DNA of 64,000 nucleotides from Anaerolineae bacterium (GTDB lineage: Bacteria; Chloroflexota; Anaerolineae; UBA3071), in the NCBI GenBank assembly GCA_029907105.1, contig JARYMM010000002.1:18992-82991 (forward strand), in the 5' to 3' direction. The position numbers and the translations under genes were made by a program. How positions within the stretch are numbered: position 1 is the first letter of the stretch; each line of letters starts with the position of its first letter. Under the pieces are notes generated by a model. That model made no database searches, was not told where the DNA came from, and was given only the letters and a program-made list of their open reading frames with translations. Positions 39,240-53,498 of the stretch are shown here, one piece after another.

Positions 39240-39725
39240 ATGGCCAAAAGAGTACAAATCAACACACCAGCTCCAGACTTCACCCTGGAGGATTTCCGCG
39301 GGCAGGCTGTCAGCCTGGCCGATTTCCGCGGCCAGAAACACGTCTTCCTGGTCTTCAACCGCGGCTTCGCCTGACCCTTCTGCCGCCGGCACATGGCGCA
39401 GTTGCGCCAGGACTATGCGGAGTTCACGGCCCGAGATGCCGAGATCGTGGTCGTCGGCCCAGAGGATGCGACGGCCTTCGAACGTTACTGGACGCAGGAG
39501 AAGCTGCCTTTCCTTGGCCTGCCCGACCCCCAATCCAGCGTGCTCAAGCTGTACGGCCAGGAGGTGAACCTCTTCAAACTTGGCCGCATGCCGGCGCAAG
39601 TCCTGGTGGACAAGGACGGCACGGCCCGTTACGTGCACTACGGCCACTCCATGAGCGACATCCCCTCCAACGAGGAGTTGCTCGCCCTGCTGGATGAGCT
39701 GAAGTCCGCCATCGGCGCGCAATAG
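39240..39725 (+). CDS. PRXL2/AhpC-TSA_2-type thiol-disulfide oxidoreductase with in-frame TGA (codon 45) at the first Cys of its CxxC motif; candidate selenoprotein (UPFC)
   Basis: ATG 39240 is preceded by GAGGGGAG. The sequence ...HVFLVFNRGFA-TGA-PFCRRHMAQL... continues in the same frame into ORF 39393..39725. A hairpin lies 20 nt downstream of the TGA. Confidence 0.6.
39372..39374 (+). other. in-frame UGA, putative selenocysteine codon
   Basis: Occupies the Cys position of the RGF-C-P-x-C redoxin motif. Confidence 0.55.
39395..39408 (+). promoter_or_regulatory. hairpin GGCGC-AGTT-GCGCC, putative bacterial SECIS apical stem-loop
   Basis: Lies 20 nt 3' of the UGA. Shares the loop context GCAGTTGC with the hairpin after the second UGA. 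Confidence 0.4.
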
Positions 39726-39984
39726 CCTGTGGGTAGCCGTCAACCGCCTGCGCCGTCTGTTGGAGCCGGAGGCGAGCGGCGATTTCTACGTGGGCTTCTT
39801 CCATCTGGAGAACTACCGCCCCACTCTGGGGATTGACACCACCTTCGCCGACGGCCGCAGCTTCGAGGTGGACGGGGCATACTGGGAGCAACAGGCCAGC
39901 GACTACATGATCCGGGCGGTGGTTGTACACCGCTAAAGCTGTTTCAGAGCGGTCACCTGATTATTTTCGAGGGAGGTAAGCAAA

Positions 39985-40233
39985 ATGAGCAGCAAGAGAA
40001 TCCTGACGATCATTGTCATCGCCAGCACTGTGATGCTGGCAGTAGGGGCCGGCCCCCAGGTTAGCGGCAACGTCTATGCGCTGCCTGCTGCCCAGGCCGG
40101 CGTGACCATCCCCTACTCGGGGCGTCTGTCCCTTGCTTCGCCTGGGGATGCTGCGCAGAGCGCCGAGGCCGGGCAGCCTGCGGCCGACGGAGCCTACGAT
40201 TTCAGCTTCGCCCTGTACTTTAGTTTCCGCTAA
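39985..40233 (+). CDS. small secreted hypothetical protein (82 aa)
   Basis: Signal peptide MSSKRILTIIVIASTVMLAVGAG. Confidence 0.4.
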   Translation: MSSKRILTIIVIASTVMLAVGAGPQVSGNVYALPAAQAGVTIPYSGRLSLASPGDAAQSAEAGQPAADGAYDFSFALYFSFR

Positions 40234-40244
40234 CTTGTTTTGCC

Positions 40245-40289
40245 ACTACATGTAGTAGCTTTGTTGATTCAGGCTACCGCATGTAGTAG
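40245..40289. promoter_or_regulatory. two copies of CATGTAGTAG (the first within the 12-bp palindrome ACTACATGTAGT) spaced ~34 bp apart, 30-70 nt upstream of the repeat-protein gene; candidate operator
   Basis: 40245..40258 and 40280..40289. Confidence 0.35.
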
Positions 40290-40315
40290 GTCATCGGAGC
40301 GCAAAATGGCCCAAA

Positions 40316-42037
40316 ATGGCTCAAAACCCCAACTTAGCGGAAAGTAGAGTGTACGATGTCCCGGCTGGCGGGGAGCCGCTGTGGACGGAGACGCAGGAAG
40401 GCGTGATGGTGCAGGGGGGCGCCTTCACGGCCTTGCTGGGGAGCGTGAACGGCATTCCCCCGGAGGTATTGGCGGGGAAAGAGCTCTGGCTGGCGGTGGC
40501 TGTGCGCGGGCCAGGGGAGGGGGAGTTCACGCTGCTGGCGCCGCGGCAGGGGGTGAGCGCCGCCTCGTCGCCGACCGGCGCGGCCGGCGGCATGACCTGC
40601 CCTCACGACCACTTTGGGGAAACCTGGACCGGCAGCGGCTCTTCTGGGCTGAACATCACGAACACCGGCGCCGGCAACGGCATCACGCTCCACAATAACA
40701 GCCAGTTTGCCACACTCCTGGCATACAACGCCTCCAGCGGCACCGGCGTGTACGGTTCCAGCAGCACCAGCGGCAAGGGCGTGTGGGGCTTCAGCACCAC
40801 CGGCTTCGGGGTGTATGGAGAAAGCCCCCGCGGCACGGGCGTGTATGGGACGACCGCGATCACGACGGGCACGACGAGCGGCGTAGTAGGCGTGGTCTCC
40901 TCGCCCGACGGCTACGGCGTGTACGGCATGAACACCACTAACGGCACGGGCGTGTATGGCTATAGCAACGGCGGTGCTGGCGTGAATGCCCGGGGTGCGA
41001 ACGCCGTAGTGGGTATCTCCAGCTCGCCCGGCTATGCCGCGATCTACGGTCGCAATGACGCCACCACGGGCACCGGCAGCGGCATCTGGGGCGAGGCCAA
41101 GTCTCCCGACGGCTATGGCGGCTACTTCAAGAACACGGCCGGCGATGGCGTGCGTGTGGAGTCGGTTGGCGGCAATGGTGTGTACGTGCACTCGGCGACC
41201 GATAATGGCGTGGAAGTGCGGTCGGCGGGCGATCATGGTGTGAAGGTGGAGTCGGCGTACTACGACGGTGTGTTTGTGAACTCCGCGGGCATCCACGGCC
41301 TGTACGTGAATTCGGCGGGCGGCAACGGCGTACTCGTGGGGTCAGCCGTGGATAGCGGCGTGTACGTGCAGTCGGCGCACAAAGGCTTGTATGTGGAGTC
41401 GTCAGAGTTGTACGGCGTGCACGCATTTGGAAAGTGGATGGGAGTATGGGGCGAAGTAGAAGGAACCCGCCATGATTGGGGCCTCCACACAACCGACTAC
41501 ATATACGCGCTTAGCTACTTTCTGCTTGGTTCGGTGATGCACGTCATGCAGAACGGGGGCAGCGAGCCTCTGGAACCGGGGGATGTGGTCGTCTTCAGCG
41601 GCCTGGGCGCGCCCCTGGAGGAGGGTGTGCCGACGGTCCAGGTGGCCAAAGCTGCCTCAGCTAACAGCACCGGCGTGGCCGGCGTGGTGTTCAGCCGCTA
41701 TAATCCCCTCATTGTGCCGGAGAACGCGAAGCCGGGAGAGGACAGCATGCCCTCTGGCTGGGAGTTCATGCCGGCGGGGCCCGTGCCGCCGGGCGAATAC
41801 CTGACGGTGGTGATTCAGGGCCCGGCTCAGGTGAAAGCCAGCGCCGTCGCCGGCCCCATCCGGTCCGGCGACCTGCTCTCCAGCGCCCCTGAGGCCGGCT
41901 ATGCCGCCAAAGCGGCCGAGGTCTCGCTGGGAGGGGTCAAGATGGCCCTGCCGGGGACGGTCTTCGGCAAGGCGCTGGAAGCGCTGGACGCCGGCCAAGA
42001 CACCGGCCTGGTATGGGTATGCGTGACGCTGCAGTGA
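40316..42037 (+). CDS. repetitive beta-solenoid-like protein (Gly/Tyr/Val-rich 10-11-residue repeats), function unknown
   Basis: Repeats GTGVYG, NGVYVHSATD, NGVEVRSAGD, HGVKVESAYY, DGVFVNSAGI, HGLYVNSAGG, NGVLVGSAVD, SGVYVQSA. No signal peptide. Confidence 0.6.
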   Translation: MAQNPNLAESRVYDVPAGGEPLWTETQEGVMVQGGAFTALLGSVNGIPPEVLAGKELWLAVAVRGPGEGEFTLLAPRQGVSAASSPTGAAGGMTCPHDHFGETWTGSGSSGLNITNTGAGNGITLHNNSQFATLLAYNASSGTGVYGSSSTSGKGVWGFSTTGFGVYGESPRGTGVYGTTAITTGTTSGVVGVVSSPDGYGVYGMNTTNGTGVYGYSNGGAGVNARGANAVVGISSSPGYAAIYGRNDATTGTGSGIWGEAKSPDGYGGYFKNTAGDGVRVESVGGNGVYVHSATDNGVEVRSAGDHGVKVESAYYDGVFVNSAGIHGLYVNSAGGNGVLVGSAVDSGVYVQSAHKGLYVESSELYGVHAFGKWMGVWGEVEGTRHDWGLHTTDYIYALSYFLLGSVMHVMQNGGSEPLEPGDVVVFSGLGAPLEEGVPTVQVAKAASANSTGVAGVVFSRYNPLIVPENAKPGEDSMPSGWEFMPAGPVPPGEYLTVVIQGPAQVKASAVAGPIRSGDLLSSAPEAGYAAKAAEVSLGGVKMALPGTVFGKALEALDAGQDTGLVWVCVTLQ

Positions 42038-42048
42038 GGAGGCCGGCG

Positions 42049-42321
42049 ATGAAGGGGATAATGCTTCTGCTAACCTTGCTGGTTCTCCTCCTGCTGGTCG
42101 GCGCCGTGCTGGCCCAACCGGGCGGGCCCGGCCCGGCCGTCTGGTACACGGTCGAGGAGGGGATGGCCTCCGGCGGGGGTTATCGCCTGACCGGGCTGGC
42201 CTGGCAGTTTAGCGGCATTGCCAGCGGCGGAAAGTATCGTCTGCTGGGGCCGGCGGCGCCGGCCCTGCGGGGCAACGGCTGCTGCTGCACCTATCTGCCC
42301 TGTATCGTGCGGAGGTGGTGA
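42049..42321 (+). CDS. small secreted Cys-containing protein (90 aa) with duplicated GGxYRLxG motif and C-terminal GNGCCCTYLPCIVRRW
   Basis: GAGGAGG ribosome-binding site 7 nt before ATG 42049. Signal peptide MKGIMLLLTLLVLLLLVGAVLA. Confidence 0.45.
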   Translation: MKGIMLLLTLLVLLLLVGAVLAQPGGPGPAVWYTVEEGMASGGGYRLTGLAWQFSGIASGGKYRLLGPAAPALRGNGCCCTYLPCIVRRW

Positions 42322-42448
42322 GAGATATCCGAGCCTCAGGCAACACACAAGTCGCTCGTGGCCGTCCAGCAGGAGCACGTGTTATACGAGCGGTATCGGG
42401 CAGCACGCCCCAACGCCGATCGTGGATGCCACATAACCGTTCATTGCT

Positions 42449-42877
42449 CTACAAATCCAGCACACACTGCACCACGTGCTGCCCGTTCTCGTCCAGGAAG
42501 TACTTCAATCCCCCGTAGGTGGCGGCTTTGACTTCCACCTTCGGCTGGTGCCGCTCGATGTCCATCGGCTCGCCGCGGGCGATGCCCTCCAGCACATAGC
42601 CGTCATCGGTCCGCTCCAGGCGGGTGACCTGGAAATCGCTGAAGAACAGCCCCTCGATGTCGCGCTGCGCCAGTAACTCGTTGAGCAGCTCCACGAACAA
42701 AGCCGCCGGGTCACCCGCCGCGCAGCGGATAGGGACTTCCTGCCGCGCCACAACCCGCTCCAGATCCACCATCAAATGAAACAGGCCGAGGGCACCATCT
42801 GTCAGCGCCTCGGCCAGCGTCCGCCCGCAACTCCGCAGCCCCACGTCGGCTGTGTGGTCAAGATATTCGTAAGGCAT
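42449..42877 (-). CDS. archease (RtcB ligase activator/chaperone)
   Basis: Starts MPYEYLDHTADVGLR (archease N-terminal signature). 142 aa. Confidence 0.85.
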   Translation of the reverse strand: MPYEYLDHTADVGLRSCGRTLAEALTDGALGLFHLMVDLERVVARQEVPIRCAAGDPAALFVELLNELLAQRDIEGLFFSDFQVTRLERTDDGYVLEGIARGEPMDIERHQPKVEVKAATYGGLKYFLDENGQHVVQCVLDL

Positions 42878-42916
42878 AGATTTTCTCCAAAGCCGAAGGC
42901 AAAAACCTGAACCCGC

Positions 42917-43570
42917 CTACCTCCGCCAGAAGCGCCAATCCCAGCCGCCTTCCTCCTTCTCTGGCCAGCCATGCTCGCCGATCAGCGGCACGAAGGCCAC
43001 GGGGGCCATGTTGCGGGTGGTCGTGCTCTGGCCCTTCTTGCGCACGCAGATCAGATTCTGGAACCCTGCCGGGCCCACGGGAGCCACCAGCCGCCCGCCG
43101 TCGGCCAGTTGATCCAGCAAAGGCTGGGGCACCTCCGGCGCGGCGGCAGTGACGATGATGGCCTCGAAGGGCGCATGCTCTGGCCAGCCGGCCGTGCCAT
43201 TGCCCACCCGCACGTGCACGTTGTGATAGCCCAACTCGGCCAGCAATCTCTGCGCCCGTTCGGCCAGCACGGCGTGGCGCTCGATGGTGTAGACGTCCCG
43301 GGCCAGCTTGCTGAGGATGGCGGCCTGGTAGCCCGACCCTGTGCCGATCTCCAGCACTCGCTCGTGGCTTTGTAATTCCAGCGCCTCCGTCATCAGGGCC
43401 ACGATGTAGGGCTGTGAGATCGTCTGCCCCTCGCCGATGGGCAGCGCACAGTCGGCGTAGGCCGAGGAGAGAAGATGCTCGGGAACGAAGCGATGGCGGG
43501 GCACCTCGCGCATGGCCTGCAGCACCCGCTCATCGGCAATGCCCCGGCTGGCGATCTGGGTCTCCACCAT
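42917..43570 (-). CDS. pcm: protein-L-isoaspartate O-methyltransferase
   Basis: Has TISQPYIVALMTE and LEIGTGSGYQAA motifs. ATG 43570 is preceded by GGGAG. The track's upstream TTG extension overlaps rpoD. Confidence 0.85.
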   Translation of the reverse strand: MVETQIASRGIADERVLQAMREVPRHRFVPEHLLSSAYADCALPIGEGQTISQPYIVALMTEALELQSHERVLEIGTGSGYQAAILSKLARDVYTIERHAVLAERAQRLLAELGYHNVHVRVGNGTAGWPEHAPFEAIIVTAAAPEVPQPLLDQLADGGRLVAPVGPAGFQNLICVRKKGQSTTTRNMAPVAFVPLIGEHGWPEKEEGGWDWRFWRR

Positions 43571-43638
43571 CCGCTCCCGCAGCCGTTGATATTCGGCCGA
43601 AGAGGCTTTCACCTCGCCACTTCCTCCAGGCCGCCAGC

Positions 43639-44838
43639 TCAATCAATGAAGTCGCGCAGACGGCGGCTGCGGCTGGGGTGGCGCAGCCGGTTGAGGGCGT
43701 GGGCTTCGATCTGGCGGATACGCTCCCGGGTCAGGCCGAACTTCTGGCCCACTTCCTCCAGTGTGTAGCTGCGCCCGTCTTGCAGGCCGAAGCGCAGGCG
43801 CAGGATGCGCGCCTCCCGCGGTTGCAATGTCTCCAGGATCTCTTCCAATTCCTCGCGCAGGAGAGCGTTGTCGGCCATCGCCGGCGGTGGCGGCGCTTCC
43901 TCGTCGGCGATAAAGCTGCCCAGCATCGTCTCCTCCTCCTCGCCGACAGGCTGTTCCAGCGACAGCGGACGGCGGGAGAGACGCAACAGTCGCCGCACCC
44001 GGTCAGGGGCCGATTCCATCCGGTCGGCGATCTCCTCGGGGGTGGCGGGGCGTCCCTGATCCTGCTCCAATTCCCGCGAGGCGCGATGCAACAGGCGCAG
44101 CTTGTCGCCGATGTGCACGGGCAGGCGGATGGTGCGCCCCTGATCGGATACGGCACGGCTGACCGCCTGGCGGATCCACCAGGTGGCGTAGGTGCTGAAC
44201 TTGTAGCCCCGTGTGTGATCGAACTTGTCCACCGCCTTCATCAGCCCCAGGTTCCCCTCCTGCACCAGATCGAGGAAGGGCACGCCCTGGCCGATGTAGC
44301 GCTTGGCCACGCTGATCACCAGGCGGGTGTTGGCCTTGATCAGTCGCCGGCGGGCCGCTTCACCTTCCTGTACCGCTTTCTTCAGGGCTTCGATCTTCCT
44401 GGCGCTGAGTCGCCCATCGTCCCTGGCCAGCCGCTCGGCGGCCTCTGCCCCTTTGGCCACGGCTTTGGCCAGTTCCACCTCTTCTTCGGCGGTGAGCAGG
44501 GGCTCCCGCCCCATCTCCCGAAAATAGAGATCGGTGGGGTCGCCCACAGGCACGTCGCTCAGATCGGGCACCTCCTCCTCTCGCTTCGGGGGCTGCCCTC
44601 GGCGTGGCGGCCTGTCCTCCCAGACGTCAATGCCGCGCTCGTGCAACTGAGCAAACAGGTCCTCCAGCAGGTCCAGGCGCTCCTCTGCGTTGGGCAGGGA
44701 GTACAGGATATCGTCATAGGTGATATACCCCTGCTCTTCGGCCTGGCTCAGCAGCTCTTCCATGATGGCCTCAGCCGGCTCAATTTCCATTTCTGTTTCT
44801 GTGGTCTGACCCAGTTCTTCGTAAATCTCGTCCTTCAT
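43639..44838 (-). CDS. rpoD: RNA polymerase primary-type sigma-70 factor
   Basis: Region 2.4 YATWWIRQA and region 4 helix-turn-helix are present. 399 aa. Confidence 0.9.
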   Translation of the reverse strand: MKDEIYEELGQTTETEMEIEPAEAIMEELLSQAEEQGYITYDDILYSLPNAEERLDLLEDLFAQLHERGIDVWEDRPPRRGQPPKREEEVPDLSDVPVGDPTDLYFREMGREPLLTAEEEVELAKAVAKGAEAAERLARDDGRLSARKIEALKKAVQEGEAARRRLIKANTRLVISVAKRYIGQGVPFLDLVQEGNLGLMKAVDKFDHTRGYKFSTYATWWIRQAVSRAVSDQGRTIRLPVHIGDKLRLLHRASRELEQDQGRPATPEEIADRMESAPDRVRRLLRLSRRPLSLEQPVGEEEETMLGSFIADEEAPPPPAMADNALLREELEEILETLQPREARILRLRFGLQDGRSYTLEEVGQKFGLTRERIRQIEAHALNRLRHPSRSRRLRDFID

Positions 44839-44995
44839 TCTCTCAACCTCGCCTCTGCATGAAACACAGATAGCTGTGAACGAACACAGAGAAACGTCAT
44901 GGTGCTTCTCCGCGTTTGTCCGCGTCTGATTGATCTTAACTCAATCTGCACCGTGTGCATATGATGTAAAGCATACCGCCGCGCCGCCCGCCGGA

Positions 44996-47900
44996 TCAAG
45001 GCCTGGACGGGCGCTGACGCGCCGCCTTCAGCTCCCGCACGCGCCCACGGCGATCAATCTGGAAACGCCGCACGTAGCGGGGCGGCAACTCGAAAGCAAA
45101 ACGTGAAGGGCCGCGCAGGAAACCATCGCCCCGATCGCGGGTGGAACAGAGATAGAGCCGTTCCCTGGCCCGCGTCATGCCCACGTAAAACACCCGCCGT
45201 TCCTCGGCCAGCGCGGCTTCCTGCCCCTCCTGCAGCGTCGTCCACAGCGGCAGGTTCTCTTCCTCCACGCCGATGATGATGACCACCGGAAACTCGGTGC
45301 CCTTGGCGTTATGCAGGGTCATCAACGTCACCCGGTCTGGCCGGGTCTCGTGGGCGAAGGTGTCCACGTTGACCACCAGCGCCTGATAGTCAAGAAAGGC
45401 GGAAAGGGAACGGTCTGCGCTGAAACGCAGGAAGGCGGCCACCTGCTGCTGGAACGCCTCCCGCAGGCGATCCCAGGCTTCGTCCACCAGCGGTGGCGGT
45501 TCCTCCGCCTCCAGCCGTGCGGCAAGCAAGGTCAGCCTCTCCTCCGCCTGTGGCCGCAGCTCCCGCACCCGTGCCAGACCCACGATCTCCCCCGAACGCT
45601 GCACGACCCGTCGCGCCGCATTGAGCAGGGCCGCCATCGGGATCATTCCGCCATCCGCATTCCGCTTTTCGCAATGCAGCTCCAGCAGTCCCAGGACGGC
45701 CAACGGCAACAACTCGGGCAGAGCACGCAACGCCGTCTGCCAGCGGTTCTCGGCCAGCAAACGCTCGAAGAGCGCCGCTACCTGGCGCACATCCCCGGCC
45801 GCGCGGTGCTCCACCCGCTCTCCCAGGCCGAAATAGCGCAGCAGGCTCTCCAGACTGTAGCTCGCCGGCGCATCCGGCCCATCGCGCAGCAGGCGGCGGG
45901 CCAGCGTCAACGTGTCCAGGTACGGGTTGCGAAAGCCCCGTCCCAGCAACCGCCCGGCCTCGCGGTCGAGAAAGCGATTGTCGAAGCCTTCGACATTGTG
46001 CCCGACCACGGTGTCGGTGCCGACGTAGGCCAGGAAGCGGGGCAGCACCCTCTCGATGCCCTCGGCGTCCCTGACGTCTTCCCAGCGCAATCCGTGAACC
46101 TGGGTGGCCGCTTTGGGAATGAAACCCTGTTCCGGCCGCACCCTGGCGTAGAAGGGTTCCCCGGCCGGCCTGCCTCCCCGCATGGCCATCCCACCGATCT
46201 CGATGATCTCATCACGTCGGGCATTGGTGCCCGTGGTCTCCAGATCGTAGACGACGAAAGAACCTTCGCCCAGCCGCTCGTGGGCGGCCAGCAGGTCCTG
46301 GGCGAAACGGTAGGCAACCACGCTGCACGGAGTTTCGGGTTCCAGGTTCCGGGTTTCAGGCTCCAGGCTCCAGGCTTCGGGTTCTGAGGCCGGGCTTCTG
46401 GCCTCGAGTCTTAAACCCCCGGCTTCGGGGATGAGTTCAATGTCCAACGGGCGGCCCAGGTAGTGCTGCAGGGTGTGCTCCAGGATGGCCGCCGCGCAGG
46501 CGCCGTCGAGGGTAGCCGGCGCAGTCAGCCGGAGGCGGGCACCCGCCTGGAGTTGGTCGCGCAGCCGTCCAGCCTCCTCGGAAAACGCGCATCCGCTGGC
46601 CCAGGTGCGCCATTTCTGCCATTCTCCCCGCTCAAAGGGACTGCGCCGCTGCTCCAGCAGGGTGAACAGCTTTTCCATGATGACGTCTACGGCCTCCGCG
46701 CTGGCCGGTTTCAACTCCTCCTCGAACAGGCGCAGAAAGCCTTGCAGATTGGCGCGGGTGAGCGGGCTGAGCTCGGGGAAGGCCTGGGCACGGCGGGCCA
46801 GATCGGCCAACCCCACGGCGTGGAAGTCCGCCAGCCTTTGCAACTGCATCACCGTCAGCTCGTCGGCCAGCGTCTGCGGGAAGTTGAGCGCTTCGAGGAT
46901 GGCCTGGTCGTCGGCCAGCGAGCGAATGAGGTGCAGGTAGCGCACCACTTCCCGCGCCCCCGGTTGCTCGAAGAAGTTTTTCTTGCGCACCCGCTGCAGC
47001 GGGATCTGCTCTTGTCCCAGGTATCCCTCCAGGTCGTCGGCCAGTTGATGGGTGCGATAAAAGATGGCGATGTCCCCGCAGGCATAGCCATGCCCGTCGG
47101 CCAGGCGGCGGATGAGACGGGTGATCAGGCGATGCTCCTGTGCGACATCGGCCAGCAGATAGTGATGGATGGGAGCCCCGCGGCCCCGGCTGGTGTGCAG
47201 AAACCGCCGGCGCTGCGGCGACCGCTGGCGGGCGATCATGTTCTGGGCAGCATAGAGAATGGTCTCCGTGCTGCGATAACACTCGGTGAGTTCGATCACC
47301 CGCGGGTGATAGCGGGCGATGAACTCGTCCACCAACTGCGGCTGCGCCCCTCGCCATTCGTAGATGGACTGGTCGTCGTCGGCCACGGCCATGACGTCGG
47401 CCCCTGGCGGGCACAGCAGGGTGAGCAGTTCGTATTGGGCGCGGTTGATGTCCTGATACTCATCCACCAGCACGTGCGGCAGCAGGCGTTGCAACTCCTG
47501 GCGCACCTCCGCCCGCTCCCGCAGCAGGCGCACGGTTTCGCCGATGAGATCGTCGAAGTCGAGGGCCCGGCGGGCACGCAAACCTTCGGCATAATCGGCA
47601 GCCAATTCGGCCCACAGTGGATCCCCGACGCTTTCGCCCGAGGCAGCTCGCGCCAGATCGCGCAACGCCGCTTTCTCGTAGCTGACGAAATCCCGCAGGC
47701 GATAGACCGGGTACAGCTCCTGGCTCAGGTTGCGCCGCGTGATGACGCTCCGCCAGATGGCGTCCTGCAGTACTTCGTCGGCGACGATGAAATCGGGCAG
47801 CAGGCCGATGGCCGCGCCATGCCGGCGCAGGATGCGCAGGCAGGCGGCGTGAAAGGTGTGGATCCAGATGTCTGCTGCCGCCGGCCCCAGCAGGTGTTCC

Positions 47901-48130
47901 AGGCGCGAGCGCATCTCCTCAGCGGCTTTGTTGGTAAAGGTCACGCAGAGCAACCGCGTGGGGGGCACCTTTCGCTCGACGACGAGATAGGCCACACGGG
48001 AGGTCAGGGTACGGGTCTTGCCGCTCCCCGGGCCGGCCAGCACCAACACCGGACCGGGCTCGAGTGTCACTGCCTGCCGTTGGCTGTCGTTCAGGCTTGC
48101 CAGAATCTCTTCCGTCGTGTGCAGGGTCAT
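44996..48130 (-). CDS. UvrD/PcrA-family SF1 helicase with an inserted DnaQ-type (DEDDh) 3'-5' exonuclease domain
   Basis: N-terminal VLVLAGPGSGKTRTL (Walker A). Middle segment VVYDLETTG...HNVEGFD...HRAAGD has exonuclease motifs I-III. C-terminal MTLHNAKGTEFP...VGMTRAR (UvrD C-domain). Start at MTLHTTEE (ATG 48130). Contains an in-frame F1 heptamer insertion. Confidence 0.8.
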   Translation of the reverse strand: MTLHTTEEILASLNDSQRQAVTLEPGPVLVLAGPGSGKTRTLTSRVAYLVVERKVPPTRLLCVTFTNKAAEEMRSRLEHLLGPAAADIWIHTFHAACLRILRRHGAAIGLLPDFIVADEVLQDAIWRSVITRRNLSQELYPVYRLRDFVSYEKAALRDLARAASGESVGDPLWAELAADYAEGLRARRALDFDDLIGETVRLLRERAEVRQELQRLLPHVLVDEYQDINRAQYELLTLLCPPGADVMAVADDDQSIYEWRGAQPQLVDEFIARYHPRVIELTECYRSTETILYAAQNMIARQRSPQRRRFLHTSRGRGAPIHHYLLADVAQEHRLITRLIRRLADGHGYACGDIAIFYRTHQLADDLEGYLGQEQIPLQRVRKKNFFEQPGAREVVRYLHLIRSLADDQAILEALNFPQTLADELTVMQLQRLADFHAVGLADLARRAQAFPELSPLTRANLQGFLRLFEEELKPASAEAVDVIMEKLFTLLEQRRSPFERGEWQKWRTWASGCAFSEEAGRLRDQLQAGARLRLTAPATLDGACAAAILEHTLQHYLGRPLDIELIPEAGGLRLEARSPASEPEAWSLEPETRNLEPETPCSVVAYRFAQDLLAAHERLGEGSFVVYDLETTGTNARRDEIIEIGGMAMRGGRPAGEPFYARVRPEQGFIPKAATQVHGLRWEDVRDAEGIERVLPRFLAYVGTDTVVGHNVEGFDNRFLDREAGRLLGRGFRNPYLDTLTLARRLLRDGPDAPASYSLESLLRYFGLGERVEHRAAGDVRQVAALFERLLAENRWQTALRALPELLPLAVLGLLELHCEKRNADGGMIPMAALLNAARRVVQRSGEIVGLARVRELRPQAEERLTLLAARLEAEEPPPLVDEAWDRLREAFQQQVAAFLRFSADRSLSAFLDYQALVVNVDTFAHETRPDRVTLMTLHNAKGTEFPVVIIIGVEEENLPLWTTLQEGQEAALAEERRVFYVGMTRARERLYLCSTRDRGDGFLRGPSRFAFELPPRYVRRFQIDRRGRVRELKAARQRPSRP
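46331..46432. repeat. family F1 heptamer array (about 14 consecutive 7-nt units: GGTTCCA GGTTCCG GGTTTCA GGCTCCA GGCTCCA GGCTTCG ...) in-frame inside the helicase gene
   Basis: Encodes ...ARSPASEPEAWSLEPETRNLEPETP... between the helicase and exonuclease domains. Confidence 0.8.
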
Positions 48131-48179
48131 GATCAGGTGTCCACCGCCTCGTGCGGTTGCCCGGCTTGCTCTATGTTCT

Positions 48180-48207
48180 ATTATAGCATACTCCTGGCGT
48201 AAGTCAA
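48180..48207 (-). promoter_or_regulatory. promoter TTGACT-16-TATAAT (TGc extended -10) for the helicase-exonuclease gene
   Basis: Plus-strand ATTATA at 48180..48185 and AGTCAA at 48202..48207. Confidence 0.5.
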
Positions 48208-48276
48208 GGGGTTTTTTGAAACGAGTTTCGATCGTTGAGGCTTGTGCGCCATCCTTGCACAGGTCTGGCCTCCAAC

Positions 48277-48305
48277 TTGACAAATATCAAGGGACATGCT
48301 ACAAT
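48277..48305 (+). promoter_or_regulatory. consensus sigma70 promoter TTGACA-17-TACAAT for the perR-led oxidative-stress operon
   Basis: The -35 is at 48277..48282 and the -10 at 48300..48305. The imperfect dyad TTAGAATGGTTATCGTTTAA (48314..48333) over the transcript start is a possible autoregulatory box. Confidence 0.6.
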
Positions 48306-48357
48306 CTCCTCAGTTTAGAATGGTTATCGTTTAATGAGGCTTGTCGTGAGGCAGACG

Positions 48358-48828
48358 ATGCTGACAACTGAGGAGATGTGTCGGAAGTTTCGGGCCCTGG
48401 GGCTGAAGGTGACGCCCCAGAGGCGCTTCATCTTCCAGGTGCTGGAGGGAAACCCCCATCACCCCTCGGCCGAGGCGGTTTACGCAGAAGTGCGTGCTTT
48501 TATCCCTGAGATCTCTCTGGCTACCGTGTACAACACGCTGCGCGAGCTGGTGGACCTGGGTGAACTGCGCGAGTTGAACCTGGGGGATGGCAAGAGCCAT
48601 TACGATCCCGACCTGAGCAACCACCAACATCTGGTGTGCGTGCGCTGCCACGCCGTCGCAGACGTGACCTGTGATATCGGTGGCCTTACCCTGACTCCGG
48701 AGCAAAGCCGGGGCTACCGACTTCTGGGCACTGATGTGACGTTCTACGGCCTGTGCCCCGCCTGCCAGCAGCAGGCGGATTGGCCGGGGCAGGCTTTGCA
48801 CCTGTGGGGGGTATCACCCGCAGCCTGA
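48358..48828 (+). CDS. perR: Fur-family metalloregulator, PerR-like
   Basis: Has a KVTPQRRFIFQVL DNA-binding helix and the HHxHxxCxxC metal site (NHQHLVCVRCH). Position heads a peroxide-stress operon. Confidence 0.7.
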   Translation: MLTTEEMCRKFRALGLKVTPQRRFIFQVLEGNPHHPSAEAVYAEVRAFIPEISLATVYNTLRELVDLGELRELNLGDGKSHYDPDLSNHQHLVCVRCHAVADVTCDIGGLTLTPEQSRGYRLLGTDVTFYGLCPACQQQADWPGQALHLWGVSPAA

Positions 48829-48861
48829 ATGCACATTACGATCGAAAGAAAGGATGACCCA

Positions 48862-49356
48862 ATGGCAAGAACAGATTTCGATTACATGAGCGGGGAGCAA
48901 TACCTGGAGGAGATCCTTCGCCAGGCGATCCGCTTCGAAGAGGAATCGTACGCCCTTTACACCAACGCCATCCGGATCAGCACGATGGCCGATGCCCGGG
49001 CCATGCTGGAGGACCTGGCTGCGCAGGAGTTGGGGCACAAACAGAAATTGCAGCGCCTTCAGGCACAGGGAGTCGCCAACCTTGTCCCTGTGGTGAGGAC
49101 GGCGGAGGCTCGGGACCTCAAACTGGCCGAGGTCTTGCAGGCGCCCTCGGAACTGGATGAAGAAGCCGACCTGCAGGACGTATTACTGGTGGCCATGCAG
49201 CGAGAGAAATCCACTCGCGAGTTCTATCTGAAGCTGGGACAGGTCACCGAAGAAGGGCCGGTCAGGAGCCTGTTCGATTTTCTGGCCGAAGAGGAGTTGA
49301 AGCATAAGCAGCGGGTCGAGTCGCTCTACGAGCAACTGGTCTACCGGGAGTTCTGA
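48862..49356 (+). CDS. rubrerythrin-like ferritin-fold diiron protein (no rubredoxin domain)
   Basis: Has two E...ExxH pairs ([30 protein letters not shown]). Confidence 0.6.
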
Positions 49357-49411
49357 TCGGAAAACGGCCAATGCGATTGGCCTTCTACCCTTTACACGAG
49401 GAGAACATAGC

Positions 49412-49573
49412 ATGAAGAAGTACGAATGTCTCGCTTGCGGCTACATTTACGATCCTGAGCTGGGCGATCCCGATGGGGGCATCGCTCCCGGCACCGCTTT
49501 CGAGGACTTGCCCGACGATTGGGTCTGCCCTCAGTGCGGTGTGGGCAAGGACATGTTCGAGCCCCTGGATTGA
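49412..49573 (+). CDS. rub: rubredoxin (53 aa); not present in the supplied ORF track
   Basis: Sequence [53 protein letters not shown] has two CxxCG knuckles. GAGGAG ribosome-binding site. Confidence 0.85.
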
Positions 49574-49590
49574 GTGAGGCCGGCGAAAGC

Positions 49591-50793
49591 ATGTCAGCCA
49601 TTGCCATCAAACCCGACGTCTATTGGATCGGTGTCAACGATCGGACGACCGACCTTTTTGAGGGCTTGTGGCCGATCTCGCAAGAGGGCGTTTCCTACAA
49701 CGCCTACCTCATCAACGACGAGAAGAAAGCGCTCATAGACCTGGCCAAAGCCTTCAAGGCGGACGAATTCTTCGACCACATCGGCGAAGTGGTGGATCCC
49801 TCGCGGCTTGACTACGTCATCATCAACCACATGGAGCCCGACCACACCGGCGTCTTGAACACGCTGCGCCGCATTGCCCCGCAGGTGACCCTTCTGGGTT
49901 CGGCCAAGACGAAGGAGATGCTGGCCTCTTTCTACGGTGTCACGGAAAACGTCGAGGTGGTCGGCGATGGCGATACCCTCTCTCTGGGCCACAGCACATT
50001 GCAGTTTTTCTCCACGCCCTTTGTGCACTGGCCGGAGACGATGATGACCTACGAGACCGGGCGGCGCATCCTTTTCTCCTGCGACGCTTTCGGTGGCTAC
50101 GGCGCGCTGCGCGGGGCCATCTTCGACGACGAGTACCCCGACCTGGGCTTCTATCAGCGGGAGGCCCTTCGCTACTATGCGAACATCATCGCCGGTTTCA
50201 GCAAACGGGTGCTGATGGCCATCGAGAAGCTGGCCGATGTGCCCGTGGAGATCATCGCCCCTTCGCACGGGCTGATCTGGCGGCAGCATCCCCAGCTCAT
50301 CGTCAACCTTTACCGCCAATGGGCCGAGTATGCCGAGAGCGGTGGCGAGGTCGGCGTGACCCTCGTCTACGGGTCCATGTACGGCTACACGGAGAAGATG
50401 ATGAATGCGGTGGCGCAAGGCATCTCCCGCGCTGGCGTGCCGGTGGAGATTTTCGACGCCGCCAGGACGCACGTCAGCTACATCCTGCCCTCCCTGTGGG
50501 CCCGGATCGGCGTGATGGTCGGCGCTCCGACCTACGAGGTCTCCCTGTTTCCTCCCGTGGCCCAGGTGCTGGACATGGCCGTGCACAAGCGCGTACGGCA
50601 TAAGAAGGCAGCCCGGTTCGGCAGCTACGGCTGGAGCGGCGGCGCGCAGAAACACTTCGAGCGCCTCGTTGAATCGGCAGGCTGGGAATTGCTGGACGTT
50701 TTCGAGTTCGTGGGCAGCCCTTCGCCGGAGGAGCTGGAGCAGGGCGAGGAATTCGGTGCCCGCTTCGCTGCACGGATCAGGGAGGGGCGATGA
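49591..50793 (+). CDS. fprA: flavodiiron protein (FprA; rubredoxin:oxygen/NO oxidoreductase)
   Basis: N-terminal metallo-beta-lactamase fold with HxExDH (HMEPDH) and a C-terminal flavodoxin domain. 400 aa. Confidence 0.85.
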   Translation: MSAIAIKPDVYWIGVNDRTTDLFEGLWPISQEGVSYNAYLINDEKKALIDLAKAFKADEFFDHIGEVVDPSRLDYVIINHMEPDHTGVLNTLRRIAPQVTLLGSAKTKEMLASFYGVTENVEVVGDGDTLSLGHSTLQFFSTPFVHWPETMMTYETGRRILFSCDAFGGYGALRGAIFDDEYPDLGFYQREALRYYANIIAGFSKRVLMAIEKLADVPVEIIAPSHGLIWRQHPQLIVNLYRQWAEYAESGGEVGVTLVYGSMYGYTEKMMNAVAQGISRAGVPVEIFDAARTHVSYILPSLWARIGVMVGAPTYEVSLFPPVAQVLDMAVHKRVRHKKAARFGSYGWSGGAQKHFERLVESAGWELLDVFEFVGSPSPEELEQGEEFGARFAARIREGR

Positions 50794-50811
50794 CGGTTGT
50801 CACATAATGTC

Positions 50812-52029
50812 ATGAATTTCACGATTATCGGCAACGGTGTGGCCGGCAACACCGCCGCCCTGGCCCTGAGCAGGCTCGTCCCAGGGGCGCGGGTTGACGT
50901 CTATGCTGCCGAAGCGCATCCCTACTACCCCCGCCCGCTGCTGCCCGAATTCCTGGCCGGCGAGCTGGACCTGGAACACCTGTACTTCAAGCCCCTGTCC
51001 TGGTATGCCGGGCGGAGCATCGCCCTGCACCTGGGCGTGCCGGTGGTCGCCATCATCCTGCAGGAACATCGCATCACGCTGGCGGATGGCACGAAGGCTG
51101 GCTACGATCGTTTGCTCCTGGCCGCCGGTGGCCAGGCCTGGGTTCCCCCCATTCGGGGCGCAGACAAGCCGGGGGTGTTTACCCTGCGCACGGTGGACGA
51201 TGCCCTGGCCATCCAGTCCTATGCCCGCCGGGCGCGCCGGGCCATCGTCATCGGCGGTGGCCTGCTGGGCCTGGAGGCGGCGCGGGCGCTGCGTGTCCTG
51301 GGTCTCCAGGTGAAAGTGGTCGAGTTTCTGCCCCGCCTGTTGCCCCGCCAGCTCGATGCCGAAGGCGCTGCCGTGCTGCAGGGGCTGATCGAGGGCCGGG
51401 GCATCGAGGTCATGGTGGATGCGGCTGCGGAGGAAATCCTGGGAGCAGATGGCGTGACGGGGCTGCGGCTCAAAGACGGTCGGGAGATCGAAGGGGAGCT
51501 TGTGCTGGTCTCCACGGGCATCCGCAGCAACGTCGCCCTGGCCCGAGAGGCGGGCCTGGAGGTGAACCATGGCGTGGTCGTAGACGAACATCTGCGCACC
51601 AGCGCCGCCGACGTCTACGCCGCGGGGGACGTGGCGGAGTTCGATGCTCGGGTCTATGGCATTGTGCCCGCGGCCATCGAGCAGGCGCGGGTTGCCGCTG
51701 CCCACATGGCCGGCGACGAGAGCGCCACTTATCAGGGCACCGTGCCCTTTACCACGCTGAAGGTCACCGGCATTGATCTGACCAGCGTGGGCGTGATCAT
51801 GCCGGAGGAGGGCCGGGAAGCGGAATATCAGGAGCTGCGGCGCACGGATGGCGCCCAGGGGCTGTACCGCAAGCTGGTGTTGAAGGACGGCTGCATTGTG
51901 GGGGCCATCCTGCTGGGCGACAAGGCCCGTGTGGGCCCCGTCACGCAGTTGATCAACCGGTCAGTGGATGTCTCGGCTCACGTCGAGCGGCTCCTGGATG
52001 ACGATTTCGACCTTAAATCCCTGCTGTGA
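50812..52029 (+). CDS. NAD(P)H:rubredoxin oxidoreductase (FAD-dependent pyridine nucleotide-disulfide oxidoreductase family)
   Basis: Has FTIIGNGVAGNTAA and IVIGGGLLGLEAA dinucleotide-binding motifs. Confidence 0.75.
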   Translation: MNFTIIGNGVAGNTAALALSRLVPGARVDVYAAEAHPYYPRPLLPEFLAGELDLEHLYFKPLSWYAGRSIALHLGVPVVAIILQEHRITLADGTKAGYDRLLLAAGGQAWVPPIRGADKPGVFTLRTVDDALAIQSYARRARRAIVIGGGLLGLEAARALRVLGLQVKVVEFLPRLLPRQLDAEGAAVLQGLIEGRGIEVMVDAAAEEILGADGVTGLRLKDGREIEGELVLVSTGIRSNVALAREAGLEVNHGVVVDEHLRTSAADVYAAGDVAEFDARVYGIVPAAIEQARVAAAHMAGDESATYQGTVPFTTLKVTGIDLTSVGVIMPEEGREAEYQELRRTDGAQGLYRKLVLKDGCIVGAILLGDKARVGPVTQLINRSVDVSAHVERLLDDDFDLKSLL

Positions 52030-52077
52030 AGCGATGGTTTCCCTCTGGAAGCACTGTTTCCACCTGTGTGGTTGGTA

Positions 52078-52105
52078 GTAGGACAACTGCGAGCAGTTGT
52101 CCTAC
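52078..52105. promoter_or_regulatory. perfect 28-bp palindrome GTAGGACAACTGC-GAG-GCAGTTGTCCTAC between nror and rbr, flanked by direct repeats AGCACTGTTTC (52050 and 52143)
   Basis: Read directly. No U-tract follows, so this is not a classical terminator. Confidence 0.5.
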
Positions 52106-52205
52106 GCTGGTAGCCAGCAGCGCCCATCGCAACCGCACAGGTAGCACTGTTTCAGGATGTGTTGGCATCCTGACCACGACTCTTCACATTCAAGGAGAAG
52201 CAACG

Positions 52206-52709
52206 ATGAAACTGATGACCAAAGACAATCTGCAAGCTGCCTTTGCCGGCGAGAGCCAGGCGCACATGAAGTATCTGATCTTCGCCGATCAGGCGGAGAA
52301 GGAAGGCTTTCCCGATGTCGCCCGTCTCTTCCGCGCCATTGCCTTCGCCGAGCAGGTCCATGCCACCAACCACTTCCGCACCCTGGGCAAAATCGGCCAG
52401 ACGGCGGAGAACCTGCAGGCGGGGATTGATGGGGAGACCTATGAGGTGAACGAGATGTACCCCGCCTTCCGCGCCGTGGCTGAGCTGCAGGAGGAAAAAG
52501 GGGCGAACCGCTCGATGAGCTGGGCCCTGGAGGCGGAGAAGGTGCATGCCGGGATGTACGAACAGGCCCGCCAGGCCGTCCTCTCCGGCAAGGATGCCGA
52601 GGTGGGTGAGGTGTACATCTGCGAAGTCTGCGGCTGGACCGTCGAAGGCGAGCTGCCTGAGCGTTGCCCCATCTGCGGGGCCAGGAAGGAGAAGTTCCGC
52701 CGCTTCTGA
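52206..52709 (+). CDS. rbr: rubrerythrin (ferritin-like diiron domain plus C-terminal rubredoxin-like CxxC...CxxC)
   Basis: Has AFAGESQAHMKY and the C-terminal CEVCGW...CPICGA. AAGGAGA ribosome-binding site. Confidence 0.85.
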   Translation: MKLMTKDNLQAAFAGESQAHMKYLIFADQAEKEGFPDVARLFRAIAFAEQVHATNHFRTLGKIGQTAENLQAGIDGETYEVNEMYPAFRAVAELQEEKGANRSMSWALEAEKVHAGMYEQARQAVLSGKDAEVGEVYICEVCGWTVEGELPERCPICGARKEKFRRF

Positions 52710-52907
52710 GATGGGCGGACAGGAAAGACACGGTGTTGCCACGTTGATCGTCGCAGGTTGCCTGTGGGGTGCTGAACAGGAGGTTTGCTCATGGCAGAGA
52801 AGGAAAAGATCCCCTCTTGCGTGCAACCAGCAGCCGGCCCGTTAGTGCCGGCACCGAAGCTCGCCTCCGCCAAAGGCGAGCCGGCAACCGAGAAGGAGGT
52901 ACCTGAG

Positions 52908-53498
52908 ATGATCGCACGTGTGGGCAAGGAAGCGCCGGATTTTGAGACCAATGCCTTTGTGGACGGAGGCTTTAAGAACATCAAGCTGTCGGACTATCGC
53001 GGCCAGTGGGTGGTGCTCTGCTTCTACCCCGGCGACTTCACCTTCGTTTGACCGACGGAACTGACGGCAGTTGCCGCCAGGTATCCGGAGCTGAAGGCGT
53101 TGGGCGTCGAGGTGCTGGCCATGAGCGTGGACAGCGTCTTCGTTCACAAGGTCTGGCAGGAAGAAGAGCTGTCCAGGATGATCGAGGGGGGAGTTCCCTA
53201 TCCCATGCTCTCCGACCGGGGCGGGCGCATCGGCACCGTCTACGGAGTCTACGACGAGGCCGCTGGTGTGGACATTCGGGGCCGTTTCCTGATTGACCCC
53301 GATGGCGTGATCCAGGCCATGGAGGTCCTGACACCGTCTGTGGGCCGCAACCCGGACGAGCTGGTCCGCCAGGTCAAGGCGTATCAGCATGTGCGGGAAA
53401 CGGGCGAAGTCACCCCCTCCGGCTGGACACCAGGCCAACCCACCCTCAAACCAGGTCCTGGTCTGGTGGGCAAGGTCTGGAAGGTGTGGAAGCCCTGA
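52908..53498 (+). CDS. AhpC/Prx1-type peroxiredoxin with in-frame TGA at the peroxidatic cysteine ([14 protein letters not shown]); candidate selenoperoxiredoxin with no resolving Cys
   Basis: ATG 52908 is preceded by AAGGAGGT. ORFs 52785..53051 and 53100..53498 share a frame across TGA 53049..53051. A hairpin lies 13 nt downstream. Confidence 0.65.
53049..53051 (+). other. in-frame UGA, putative selenocysteine codon
   Basis: Replaces the Cys codon of the universal peroxiredoxin motif DFTFVCPTE. Confidence 0.6.
53065..53076 (+). promoter_or_regulatory. hairpin CGGC-AGTT-GCCG, putative bacterial SECIS apical stem-loop
   Basis: Lies 13 nt 3' of the UGA. Loop context GCAGTTGC is shared with 39395..39408. 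Confidence 0.4.

Follow-up and report, generated by a model that had tools for sequence, protein, structure and literature searches.

The mechanism by which SelB mediates selenocysteine (Sec) insertion is established, and the SECIS element of E. coli fdhF, with which we compare the present locus, is a minihelix 11 nt after the UGA that carries a bulged U17, which precedes the loop G by 6 nt. Its tetraloop reads G22 G23 U24 C25, which we verified in 5420 genomes. The bacterial SECIS (bSECIS) model of Zhang and Gladyshev, in the form summarised in PMC13188914, places directly 3' of an in-frame UGA a hairpin with 3-9 nt in the loop and 4-16 bp in the stem, a G among the first two loop positions that is usually followed by G or U, 16-37 nt from the UGA to the loop, and a folding energy (MFE) of -7.5 kcal/mol or lower. 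Two described selenoprotein families are close to the genes discussed here. Prx-like thiol:disulfide oxidoreductase selenoproteins, as characterised in PMC13188914 and PMC1794560, combine the domain PF00578 with a UxxC or UxxU motif, and PrxU of Eubacterium acidaminophilum goes back to Sohling et al. 2001, as cited in PMC13188914. Relic hairpins that persist after Sec-to-Cys conversion are among the cases described in PMC1794560.

The window, by which we mean the whole 64,000-nucleotide stretch of Anaerolineae DNA that was analysed, contains two genes, designated gene A and gene B (Table 1), whose reading frames are each interrupted by a single TGA and nothing else, in both cases at the redox-active position of an AhpC/TSA fold, and each TGA is followed by a hairpin with the same loop. 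Going by sequence, we consider it about 90% probable that both hairpins are canonical bacterial SECIS elements in known selenoprotein families and that the loop they share is simply the standard bacterial one.

Table 1. Positions of the two predicted selenoprotein genes, their predicted recoding signals and the intergenic palindrome within the window
Feature	Position	Strand or context	Basis
Gene A, predicted Prx-like selenoprotein, 161 aa, AhpC/TSA fold	39240..39725	+	translation; Pfam; homologs
Predicted Sec45 codon of gene A, in-frame UGA	39372..39374	+	translation; homolog alignment
Predicted gene A SECIS hairpin, U-GGCGC AGUU GCGCC-A	39394..39409	+	folding, RNAalifold, codon conservation
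28-bp palindrome, GTAGGACAACTGC-GA-GCAGTTGTCCTAC	52078..52105	intergenic	sequence
Gene B, predicted PrxU, Sec-containing typical 2-Cys peroxiredoxin	52791..53498	+	translation; Pfam; NCBIfam NF040737
Predicted Sec codon of gene B, in-frame UGA, peroxidatic position	53049..53051	+	translation; 78 metagenome loci
Predicted gene B SECIS hairpin, CUG.a.CGGC AGUU GCCG.c.CAG	53061..53080	+	folding, covariation

Gene A was placed by domain and motif. Its product matches PF00578 (3.3e-23) as well as PF08534 and carries the redox motif U45-P-F-C48, a UxxC, and these are the features it has in common with the Prx-like thiol:disulfide oxidoreductase selenoproteins, a family known here by description, with WP_010940744.1 as its reference member. 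The best NCBIfam match, the SelL-related redox protein model NF040769, scored 85.5 bits, below its cut-off of 120. In alignments the Sec residue falls on the Thr of the peroxiredoxin TxxC motif and is equivalent to the first Cys of CxxC in thioredoxin-fold proteins. Homologs from 80 species, almost all Chloroflexota/Anaerolineae, make up family A together with the window gene, and TGA stands at the same site in 80/80 of these loci (81/81 sequences with the window included); rare Cys forms of the family have TGT or TGC there. By these features gene A is a member of the known Prx-like UxxC selenoprotein family.

The NCBIfam equivalog model for PrxU (peroxi_PrxU) accepts gene B, whose score of 369.7 bits exceeds the cut-off of 270, and Pfam finds AhpC-TSA (1.3e-39) and 1-cysPrx_C. 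The product has the TxxU motif of PrxU, as T-F-V-U, with Sec at the peroxidatic position, and also an N-terminal extension like that of the 233-residue model. Translation from the ATG at 52791 gives 235 aa and from the ATG at 52908 only 196 aa; the upstream in-frame ATG has a ribosome-binding site, and the extension agrees with homologs of about 235 aa. TGA is found in 78/78 metagenome loci that carry the gene B motif, and these, with the window and one distant relative, constitute family B. Apart from its setting in a GC-rich, Chloroflexota-like genome rather than a Clostridium-type organism, we found no differences between gene B and the known selenoprotein family PrxU, to which it belongs by sequence. 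The earlier note had regarded the two genes as unrelated, a description that does not survive the finding that both match PF00578, share the AhpC/TSA fold and align with each other in BLASTP at E=3e-7. Their SECIS elements are nevertheless probably of independent origin, because the Sec sites and the reading frames over the hairpin differ between the two genes.

Both hairpins have the form in which the earlier note drew them. The core of the gene A hairpin, GGCGC-AGTT-GCGCC at 39395..39408, starts 20 nt past the TGA and is lengthened by a U-A pair to a 6-bp stem beneath a tetraloop, with a folding energy of -10.0 kcal/mol; it codes for M-A-Q-L-R. In gene B the core, CGGC-AGTT-GCCG at 53065..53076, lies 13 nt past the TGA, and its 4-bp stem with a 4-nt loop continues beyond a 1x1 mismatch for another 3 bp (CUG/CAG), the extended form having an energy of -8.7 kcal/mol and coding for L-T-A-V-A-A-R. 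With the U of UGA numbered +1, the loop G and U are at +30 and +31 in gene A and at +22 and +23 in gene B, and the UGA-to-loop distances are 25 and 17 nt. Position past the UGA, loop, stem, loop G-U, spacing and energy thus all fall within the bSECIS model for both hairpins, and nothing in either is excluded by it; the upper stem is rich in G+C and 4-6 bp long in both, and the spacing in gene A is 8 nt longer than in gene B. Hairpin-only folding z-scores in windows of 49-69 nt were unremarkable. Another hairpin in gene A nearer the UGA (GCC-GCC-GGC, 39382-39390) was dropped as a SECIS candidate, since its sequence is not conserved.

Comparison with E. coli fdhF brings out the same apex. In all three hairpins a tetraloop exposes a G-U between two complementary bases, A..U in gene A and gene B; the fdhF loop, GGUC, is identical to that of 35/79 PrxU relatives, and fdhF GCAG-GU-CUGC less one pair corresponds to the window apex GCA-GU-UGC. 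The fdhF loop G is at +23, one position from that of gene B, whereas the gene A loop lies 7 nt further from the UGA than that of fdhF. The bulged U of fdhF has no conserved counterpart: gene A has no bulge, and in gene B the A at the corresponding position, 16, is mismatched with C, while family B as a whole has G there in 43 sequences, U in 27 and A in 9, paired in about half. The earlier note had named a G/U apex and a conserved bulged U as the signs of a SECIS, and it is the first of these that is borne out, in 81/81 family A and 79/79 family B sequences and at a spacing that suits the bSECIS model, while the second is lacking.

A hairpin in coding sequence may also be a by-product of the protein. 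If the two hairpins had no RNA function and merely followed from conserved peptides (A-V-A, encoded by GCN GUN GCN, and A-Q-L-R), then the octamer they share would be coincidental. The stems are indeed partly dictated by conserved amino acids in both genes, three of the four inner PrxU stem pairs being set by [TAS]-A-V-A-[AV], and the hairpin peptides are conserved in Cys forms too; moreover, the octamer, as GCAGTTGC, occurs 15 times on both strands of the window against 3.9 expected, and two random 40-nt window segments share some 8-mer with p=0.034. What contradicts such a reading is that synonymous positions are frozen, or covary, precisely at the sites that a helix requires, and that TGA is present in all 158/158 hairpin-bearing loci. 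In family A the AGUU loop is constant in all 81 sequences and three hairpin codons have zero entropy, namely Ala GCG (79/79), Gln CAG (81/81) and Leu UUG (81/81), with Arg as CGC in 72 and CGU in 9. Nearby residues that are equally conserved use 2-4 codons, and the control Leu at codon -8 uses four (CUG 51, UUG 18, CUC 7, CUU 3). Every change in the stem preserves pairing: G25-C36 appears as G-U in seven cases and as A-U in three, and C26-G35 as U-A in one, with compensatory G-C to A-U changes in loci L024, L044 and L168. The gene A hairpin is the sole helix in the RNAalifold consensus of the family, at -10.6 kcal/mol, and at the protein level the Sec forms combine residues at its two sides as (Ala,Arg) in 86, (Met,His) in 12, (Ala,His) in 1 and (Met,Arg) in 0.

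Family B shows covariation. The synonymous-site pair 18/27 is GC in 60 sequences and AU in 15, pair 15/30 is GC in 62 and CG in 3, and the loop positions 21/24 are AU in 40, GC in 34, GU in 2 and other in 2, around the constant G22 and U23. Double-change cells number 61 against 21.9+-7.1 in shuffles, a value that 0/500 shuffles reach, and slid controls give 1-33, with the proviso that these sequences are phylogenetically related and the cell counts exceed the number of independent events. Among background A-V-A tripeptides, 10.8% of 176 have A/U or G/C at the two synonymous sites concerned, compared with 95% at the PrxU hairpin site. Cys-form relatives retain relic hairpins or hairpins with one pair broken (the DNA control for Cys-form PrxU being n=3). 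Taken with the frozen codons of family A, this makes an origin of the hairpins from peptide conservation highly improbable, and the earlier proposal that both are SECIS elements gains support from synonymous-site conservation and compensatory changes in 80 and 78 TGA-containing loci, respectively.

Whether the shared motif is common at random, a possibility that the earlier note had itself raised, has a divided answer. The octamer is overrepresented, as stated above, and so is its CAGTTG core (53 copies in the window against 30.5 expected), but a match of the apex octamer between two random NGUN tetraloop hairpins with a stem of at least 4 bp has p=0.006, and of the 15 copies only those in gene A and gene B follow a UGA that is in the frame of a real gene. 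This low chance probability might be taken to favor the idea, put forward in the same note, of an apex peculiar to the lineage, in which its SelB would have evolved to recognise GC-AGUU-GC and the two genes would be alike for that reason. The invariant AGUU of family A, nearly all of whose members are Chloroflexota, fits this idea, as does the presence of AGUU in both window genes even though a GC content of 65% would not lead one to expect the codons GCA and GUU. The family A loop, however, is set by CAG UUG, the codons for Gln-Leu, and in family B AGUU (40/79) alternates with GGUC, the fdhF loop, even among close PrxU relatives of 76-83% identity, the flanking bases covarying as A..U or G..C and the two loops largely tracking subclades. 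The apex GCAGUUGC is also present in a family A relative of 32% GC (L168) and in a PrxU relative of 31% GC (L171), so that its distribution tracks the gene families rather than a single lineage. We regard a lineage-specific apex as improbable on these grounds, and our preferred reading attributes the shared octamer to a common SelB-binding requirement rather than to a peculiarity of the lineage.

The same CAGTTG core is found in both arms of the 28-bp palindrome, which the earlier note had placed within the operon of gene B and linked to the hairpins. The palindrome sits in a highly structured element (52047-52173) that is intergenic and not within a gene, and that may be either a site of mRNA processing or stabilisation or an operator for a protein. 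Neither it nor its flanking repeats were found elsewhere in the window or in 167 related loci, and scans for promoters and terminators around it were uninformative. If CAGTTG were a protein-binding motif at the DNA level common to the palindrome and the two hairpins, for instance a putative Fur/PerR-like operator, then the position of the palindrome in an oxidative-stress gene cluster whose first gene is of the Fur family would be suggestive. Such a motif would have to be reconciled with the abundance of the hexamer, with a palindrome that is single-copy and not conserved, with hairpins that are part of coding regions, keep a fixed spacing to the UGA and covary as RNA helices, and with the placement of gene A among unrelated genes at a distance of 13 kb. 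A common DNA motif is vanishingly unlikely, and the palindrome is unrelated to the hairpins.

The family A element may nonetheless hold more than SelB-binding information, given that nearly all of the 80 Chloroflexota species have an identical 16-nt hairpin, that its loop is 8 nt further from the UGA than that of PrxU in the same genome, and that further synonymous sites are frozen (UGC in 81/81 at +10..12, and G at +18 in 77/81). These additional sites could form a second mini-helix. A two-part SECIS typical of the lineage, an additional function in regulation, for example translational control that depends on selenium, or a single SelB that tolerates two spacings could each account for this, and we consider such extra information unlikely.

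Searches beyond the two hairpins add little. Rfam returned no SECIS or other relevant family, either for the whole window at the gathering threshold or for the two loci at E<=1. No selA, selB or selD, and no tRNA-Sec by ARAGORN, was found within the 64-kb window, and that the organism decodes Sec is something we infer from the two genes. The window was also scanned for frames that continue past a TGA, with 35 or more open codons required both before and after it, together with a hairpin that has an NGUN tetraloop. Of the 10 candidates, all except gene A and gene B were judged off-frame; a minus-strand candidate at 30255 that repeats the GCGC-AGTT-GCGC hairpin lies antisense to a photolyase gene. 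The same scan applied to the flanks of the 167 loci yielded no further recurrent selenoprotein candidate.

If both hairpins act as canonical SECIS elements, each would lie in the mRNA just 3' of the in-frame UGA, and when a ribosome reaches that codon, the C-terminal winged-helix domains of SelB would bind the hairpin apex. SelB would thereby bring Sec-tRNA(Sec) to the A site, and UGA would be decoded as selenocysteine without termination. The determinant would be the G-U atop a G+C-rich stem together with the two complementary loop bases beside it, which are A..U in the window genes and G..C in E. coli fdhF and many relatives. The octamer common to both genes would then have been reached independently in two reading frames, in the Prx-like UxxC gene as GCG CAG UUG CGC, coding for A-Q-L-R, and in PrxU as GCA GUU GCC, coding for A-V-A.

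The biological consequence is small, amounting to a Chloroflexota-like genome with two selenoproteins of known families and canonical SECIS elements. Public gene calls of both families are often wrong, with TGA read as Trp or open reading frames truncated to a start at MAQLRQ, and the conserved hairpins offer a simple signature with which to fix such calls. The data also show loop bases flanking the G-U that covary like a base pair, in agreement with SelB-SECIS structures, and they illustrate how a SECIS limits the choice of codons and even of amino-acid pairs, as with Ala/Arg versus Met/His.

The hairpins that follow the in-frame TGA codons of gene A (a Prx-like UxxC selenoprotein gene) and gene B (the PrxU gene) share an AGTT loop exactly as an earlier note had described, and function of both as selenocysteine-insertion (SECIS) elements, which that note had proposed, is strongly supported by sequence comparison: synonymous sites are frozen or covary, TGA is kept throughout, and both hairpins conform to the bacterial SECIS model. 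The octamer GCAGTTGC that they share is frequent: the window, at 65% GC, has 15 copies where 3.9 would be expected, and some 8-mer common to two random 40-mers would arise with p=0.034. The same apex octamer in two random NGUN tetraloop hairpins is expected with p=0.006 only. None of the other 13 copies in the window lies downstream of a UGA that is in frame in a real gene. A third hairpin, GCGC-AGTT-GCGC, 28 nt past a TGA with frames open on both sides, was rejected as a selenoprotein gene; it is a chance look-alike, since a photolyase gene occupies the opposite strand there.

Features of the two selenoprotein genes, their surroundings and the spacer palindrome, in window positions
Feature	Position	Strand	Remarks
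Gene A	39240-39725	+	Prx-like UxxC selenoprotein
Gene A in-frame TGA	39372-39374	+
Gene A frozen sites, nt +10 to +20	39381-39391
Gene A hairpin GGCGC-AGTT-GCGCC	39395-39408		20 nt past TGA; U-A pair lengthens it to 39394-39409
Gene B	52791-53498	+	PrxU
PrxU N-terminal extension	52791-52907		39 residues
Gene B in-frame TGA	53049-53051
Gene B hairpin CGGC-AGTT-GCCG	53065-53076		13 nt past TGA; longer stem 53061-53080
Oxidative-stress cluster	48334-53498	+
Spacer	52030-52205		176 nt; reductase-like gene stop 52029, rubrerythrin ATG 52206
Nested structure	52047-52173
13+13 palindrome	52078-52105
Outer 13-nt inverted repeat	52062-52074 / 52130-52142
23-nt direct repeat	52047-52069 / 52140-52162
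7-bp hairpin	52154-52173
Third hairpin	30228-30255	-
Photolyase gene	30036-31457	+

For family A, the homologs of gene A, a scan with one genome per species gave 80 loci at 65-77% protein identity, nearly all from Chloroflexota/Anaerolineae MAGs, and TGA is kept in 80/80. Counted from the U of UGA as +1, the hairpin U23-GGCGC-AGUU-GCGCC-A38 hardly varies at all: the Ala codon is GCG in 79/79, Gln CAG in 81/81, Leu UUG in 81/81, and Arg CGC in 72 and CGU in 9. Conserved residues nearby use 2-4 codons each, an invariant Leu at codon -8 being CUG 51, UUG 18, CUC 7 and CUU 3 times. Rare stem changes preserve pairing (G25-C36 is replaced by G-U in 7 cases and by A-U in 3), and in the relative L168 (32% GC, peptide HMMQLH) two neighbouring pairs are exchanged to give UGAUGC-AGUU-GCAUCA. 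Among Sec-form proteins (Ala,Arg) occurs 86 times, (Met,His) 12 times, (Ala,His) once and (Met,Arg) never, and the hairpin is the sole helix predicted by RNAalifold (-10.6 kcal/mol). Further synonymous sites are frozen between UGA and SECIS in the 80 loci (L001-L080) and L168: the Cys codon after UGA is UGC in 81/81, and nt +18 is G in 77/81 over varying amino acids. Positions +10-12 could form a 3-bp mini-helix with +18-20, a potential also retained in L168, no covariation being available for the pairing.

For family B, the PrxU homologs, a metagenome scan with a seed downstream of the hairpin gave 80 loci, 78 covering the motif, and TGA is present in all 78. Loop positions G22 and U23 are invariant, within loops that read AGUU (40), GGUC (35), AGUC (2) or GGUU (2). 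The flanking positions 21/24 are pair-like (AU 40, GC 34, GU 2, other 2). Pair 18/27, made of two synonymous third positions, is GC in 60, AU in 15 and GU in 2, and pair 15/30 is GC in 62 and CG in 3. Double-change cells number 61, compared with 21.9±7.1 in column shuffles (0/500 as high) and 1-33 in slid controls; A/U or G/C occupies the same two synonymous sites in only 10.8% of 176 other A-V-A peptides, taken from long ORFs in the window and in the loci. The distant PrxU L171 (31% GC, peptide UATEVSAVAEKY) carries UUUCAGC-AGUU-GCUGAAA at the same position, and the stem of gene B itself continues beyond an A.C mismatch with CUG/CAG. SelB reportedly contacts an extruded G and U in the SelB-SECIS structures (Fourmy et al. 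2002; Yoshizawa et al. 2005, PDB 1WSU), with the bases on either side of them paired, an arrangement that the covariation at 21/24 fits.

Relic SECIS elements have been described after Sec-to-Cys conversions (PMC1794560), and the Cys-form hairpins of both families look like such relics. In rare Cys forms of family A the hairpin is intact in two loci (L162, L163) and broken at a single pair in two (L161, L164); the Cys forms of PrxU (L165-L167), a small control of three relatives, have at least one disruption each.

The E. coli fdhF SECIS sequence is present under fdhF in 5420/5426 E. coli genomes, with the apex G19 C20 A21 / G22 G23 U24 C25 / U26 G27 C28; its conserved positions are U17, G23 and U24 (PMC8659212). 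By comparison, PrxU has G22 U23, 1 nt nearer the UGA. The identical GGUC loop is found in half of the PrxU relatives, and AGUU keeps the same layout with an A..U flank replacing G..C. The loop G-U is invariant in both families; the bulged U of fdhF is missing or unconserved, a feature that the general bacterial model does not require. That model has a 3-9 nt loop on a 4-16 bp upper stem, a G within the first two loop nucleotides that G or U usually follows, a distance of 16-37 nt between UGA and loop, and an MFE of at most -7.5 kcal/mol (2026 review, PMC13188914), and both hairpins agree with it in every respect (gene A 25 nt, -10.0 kcal/mol; gene B 17 nt, -8.7 kcal/mol). The conserved G is described as lying ~20 nt past the UGA, and a SelB hinge as able to take up differences in spacing (PMC4605307). 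The 8 nt by which genes A and B differ therefore pose no problem.

The earlier note had called the two genes unrelated, but each encodes a protein of the AhpC/TSA fold (PF00578), and the two proteins align by BLASTP at 25% identity (E=3e-7), so they are not. In the pairwise alignment, Sec of gene A (residue 45, motif U-P-F-C) lies opposite the Thr of PrxU TxxU and its Cys48 opposite the PrxU Sec (residue 48, 196-aa numbering); within the fold, three codons thus separate one Sec position from the other, and the sites are non-homologous. This, together with the different frames in which the octamer is read (GCG CAG UUG CGC, A-Q-L-R, in gene A; GCA GUU GCC, A-V-A, in gene B), argues that the SECIS elements are of independent origin. 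Despite the non-homologous sites, the SECIS loops lie at most 1 nt apart in alignment coordinates.

Gene B scores 369.7 bits (cut-off 270) against the NCBIfam equivalog model for selenoprotein peroxiredoxin PrxU, with Sec at the peroxidatic position of TxxU. Its true start is probably ATG 52791 (235 aa), since an RBS is present and the N-terminal extension is like that of ~235-aa homologs; the extension has a Cys and resembles the G-C-x-R-P extension of these homologs and of the NCBIfam model (233 residues). Gene B is the last gene of an apparent oxidative-stress cluster (Fur/PerR-like, rubrerythrin, flavodiiron protein, NADH:rubredoxin-reductase-like flavoprotein, second rubrerythrin with a rubredoxin-like domain, PrxU). 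The best NCBIfam match of gene A is under cut-off; by its PF00578 fold and UxxC motif, gene A fits an established selenoprotein family, the 'Prx-like thiol:disulfide oxidoreductase' one (PMC13188914; PMC1794560).

A link between the SECIS apex and the spacer palindrome through their CAGTTG core finds no backing: the hexamer is common (53 copies in the window), and the palindrome is single-copy there and absent upstream of PrxU in other loci. It forms the core of a nested structure, in which an outer inverted repeat encloses it with a small hairpin, a direct repeat surrounds it and a further hairpin follows. The spacer region folds at -68 kcal/mol (z=-5.9; 0/200 shuffles as stable) and has no Rfam match.

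An apex specific to this lineage, which had been suggested as possible, finds no support: the apex follows the gene families through organisms of 31% to 66% GC, AGUU and the canonical GGUC interchange among close relatives, and Gln-Leu codons fix the family A loop letters. A lineage-specific apex keeps a residual possibility, since the comparison covered these two gene families, no other selenoprotein gene of the lineage having turned up in the window or the flanks of the loci. No Sec machinery was found within the 64-kb window. Genes A and B add new members to selenoprotein families already known, and their SECIS elements are canonical bacterial ones.

In both families, many of the public protein records (among P0001-P0240) have Trp at the Sec site, apparently from TGA translated as Trp on short contigs, and others are truncated ORFs beginning MAQLRQ; this looks like an artefact that affects the annotation of these selenoproteins systematically. 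The chief practical value of the finding lies in the annotation of both families.
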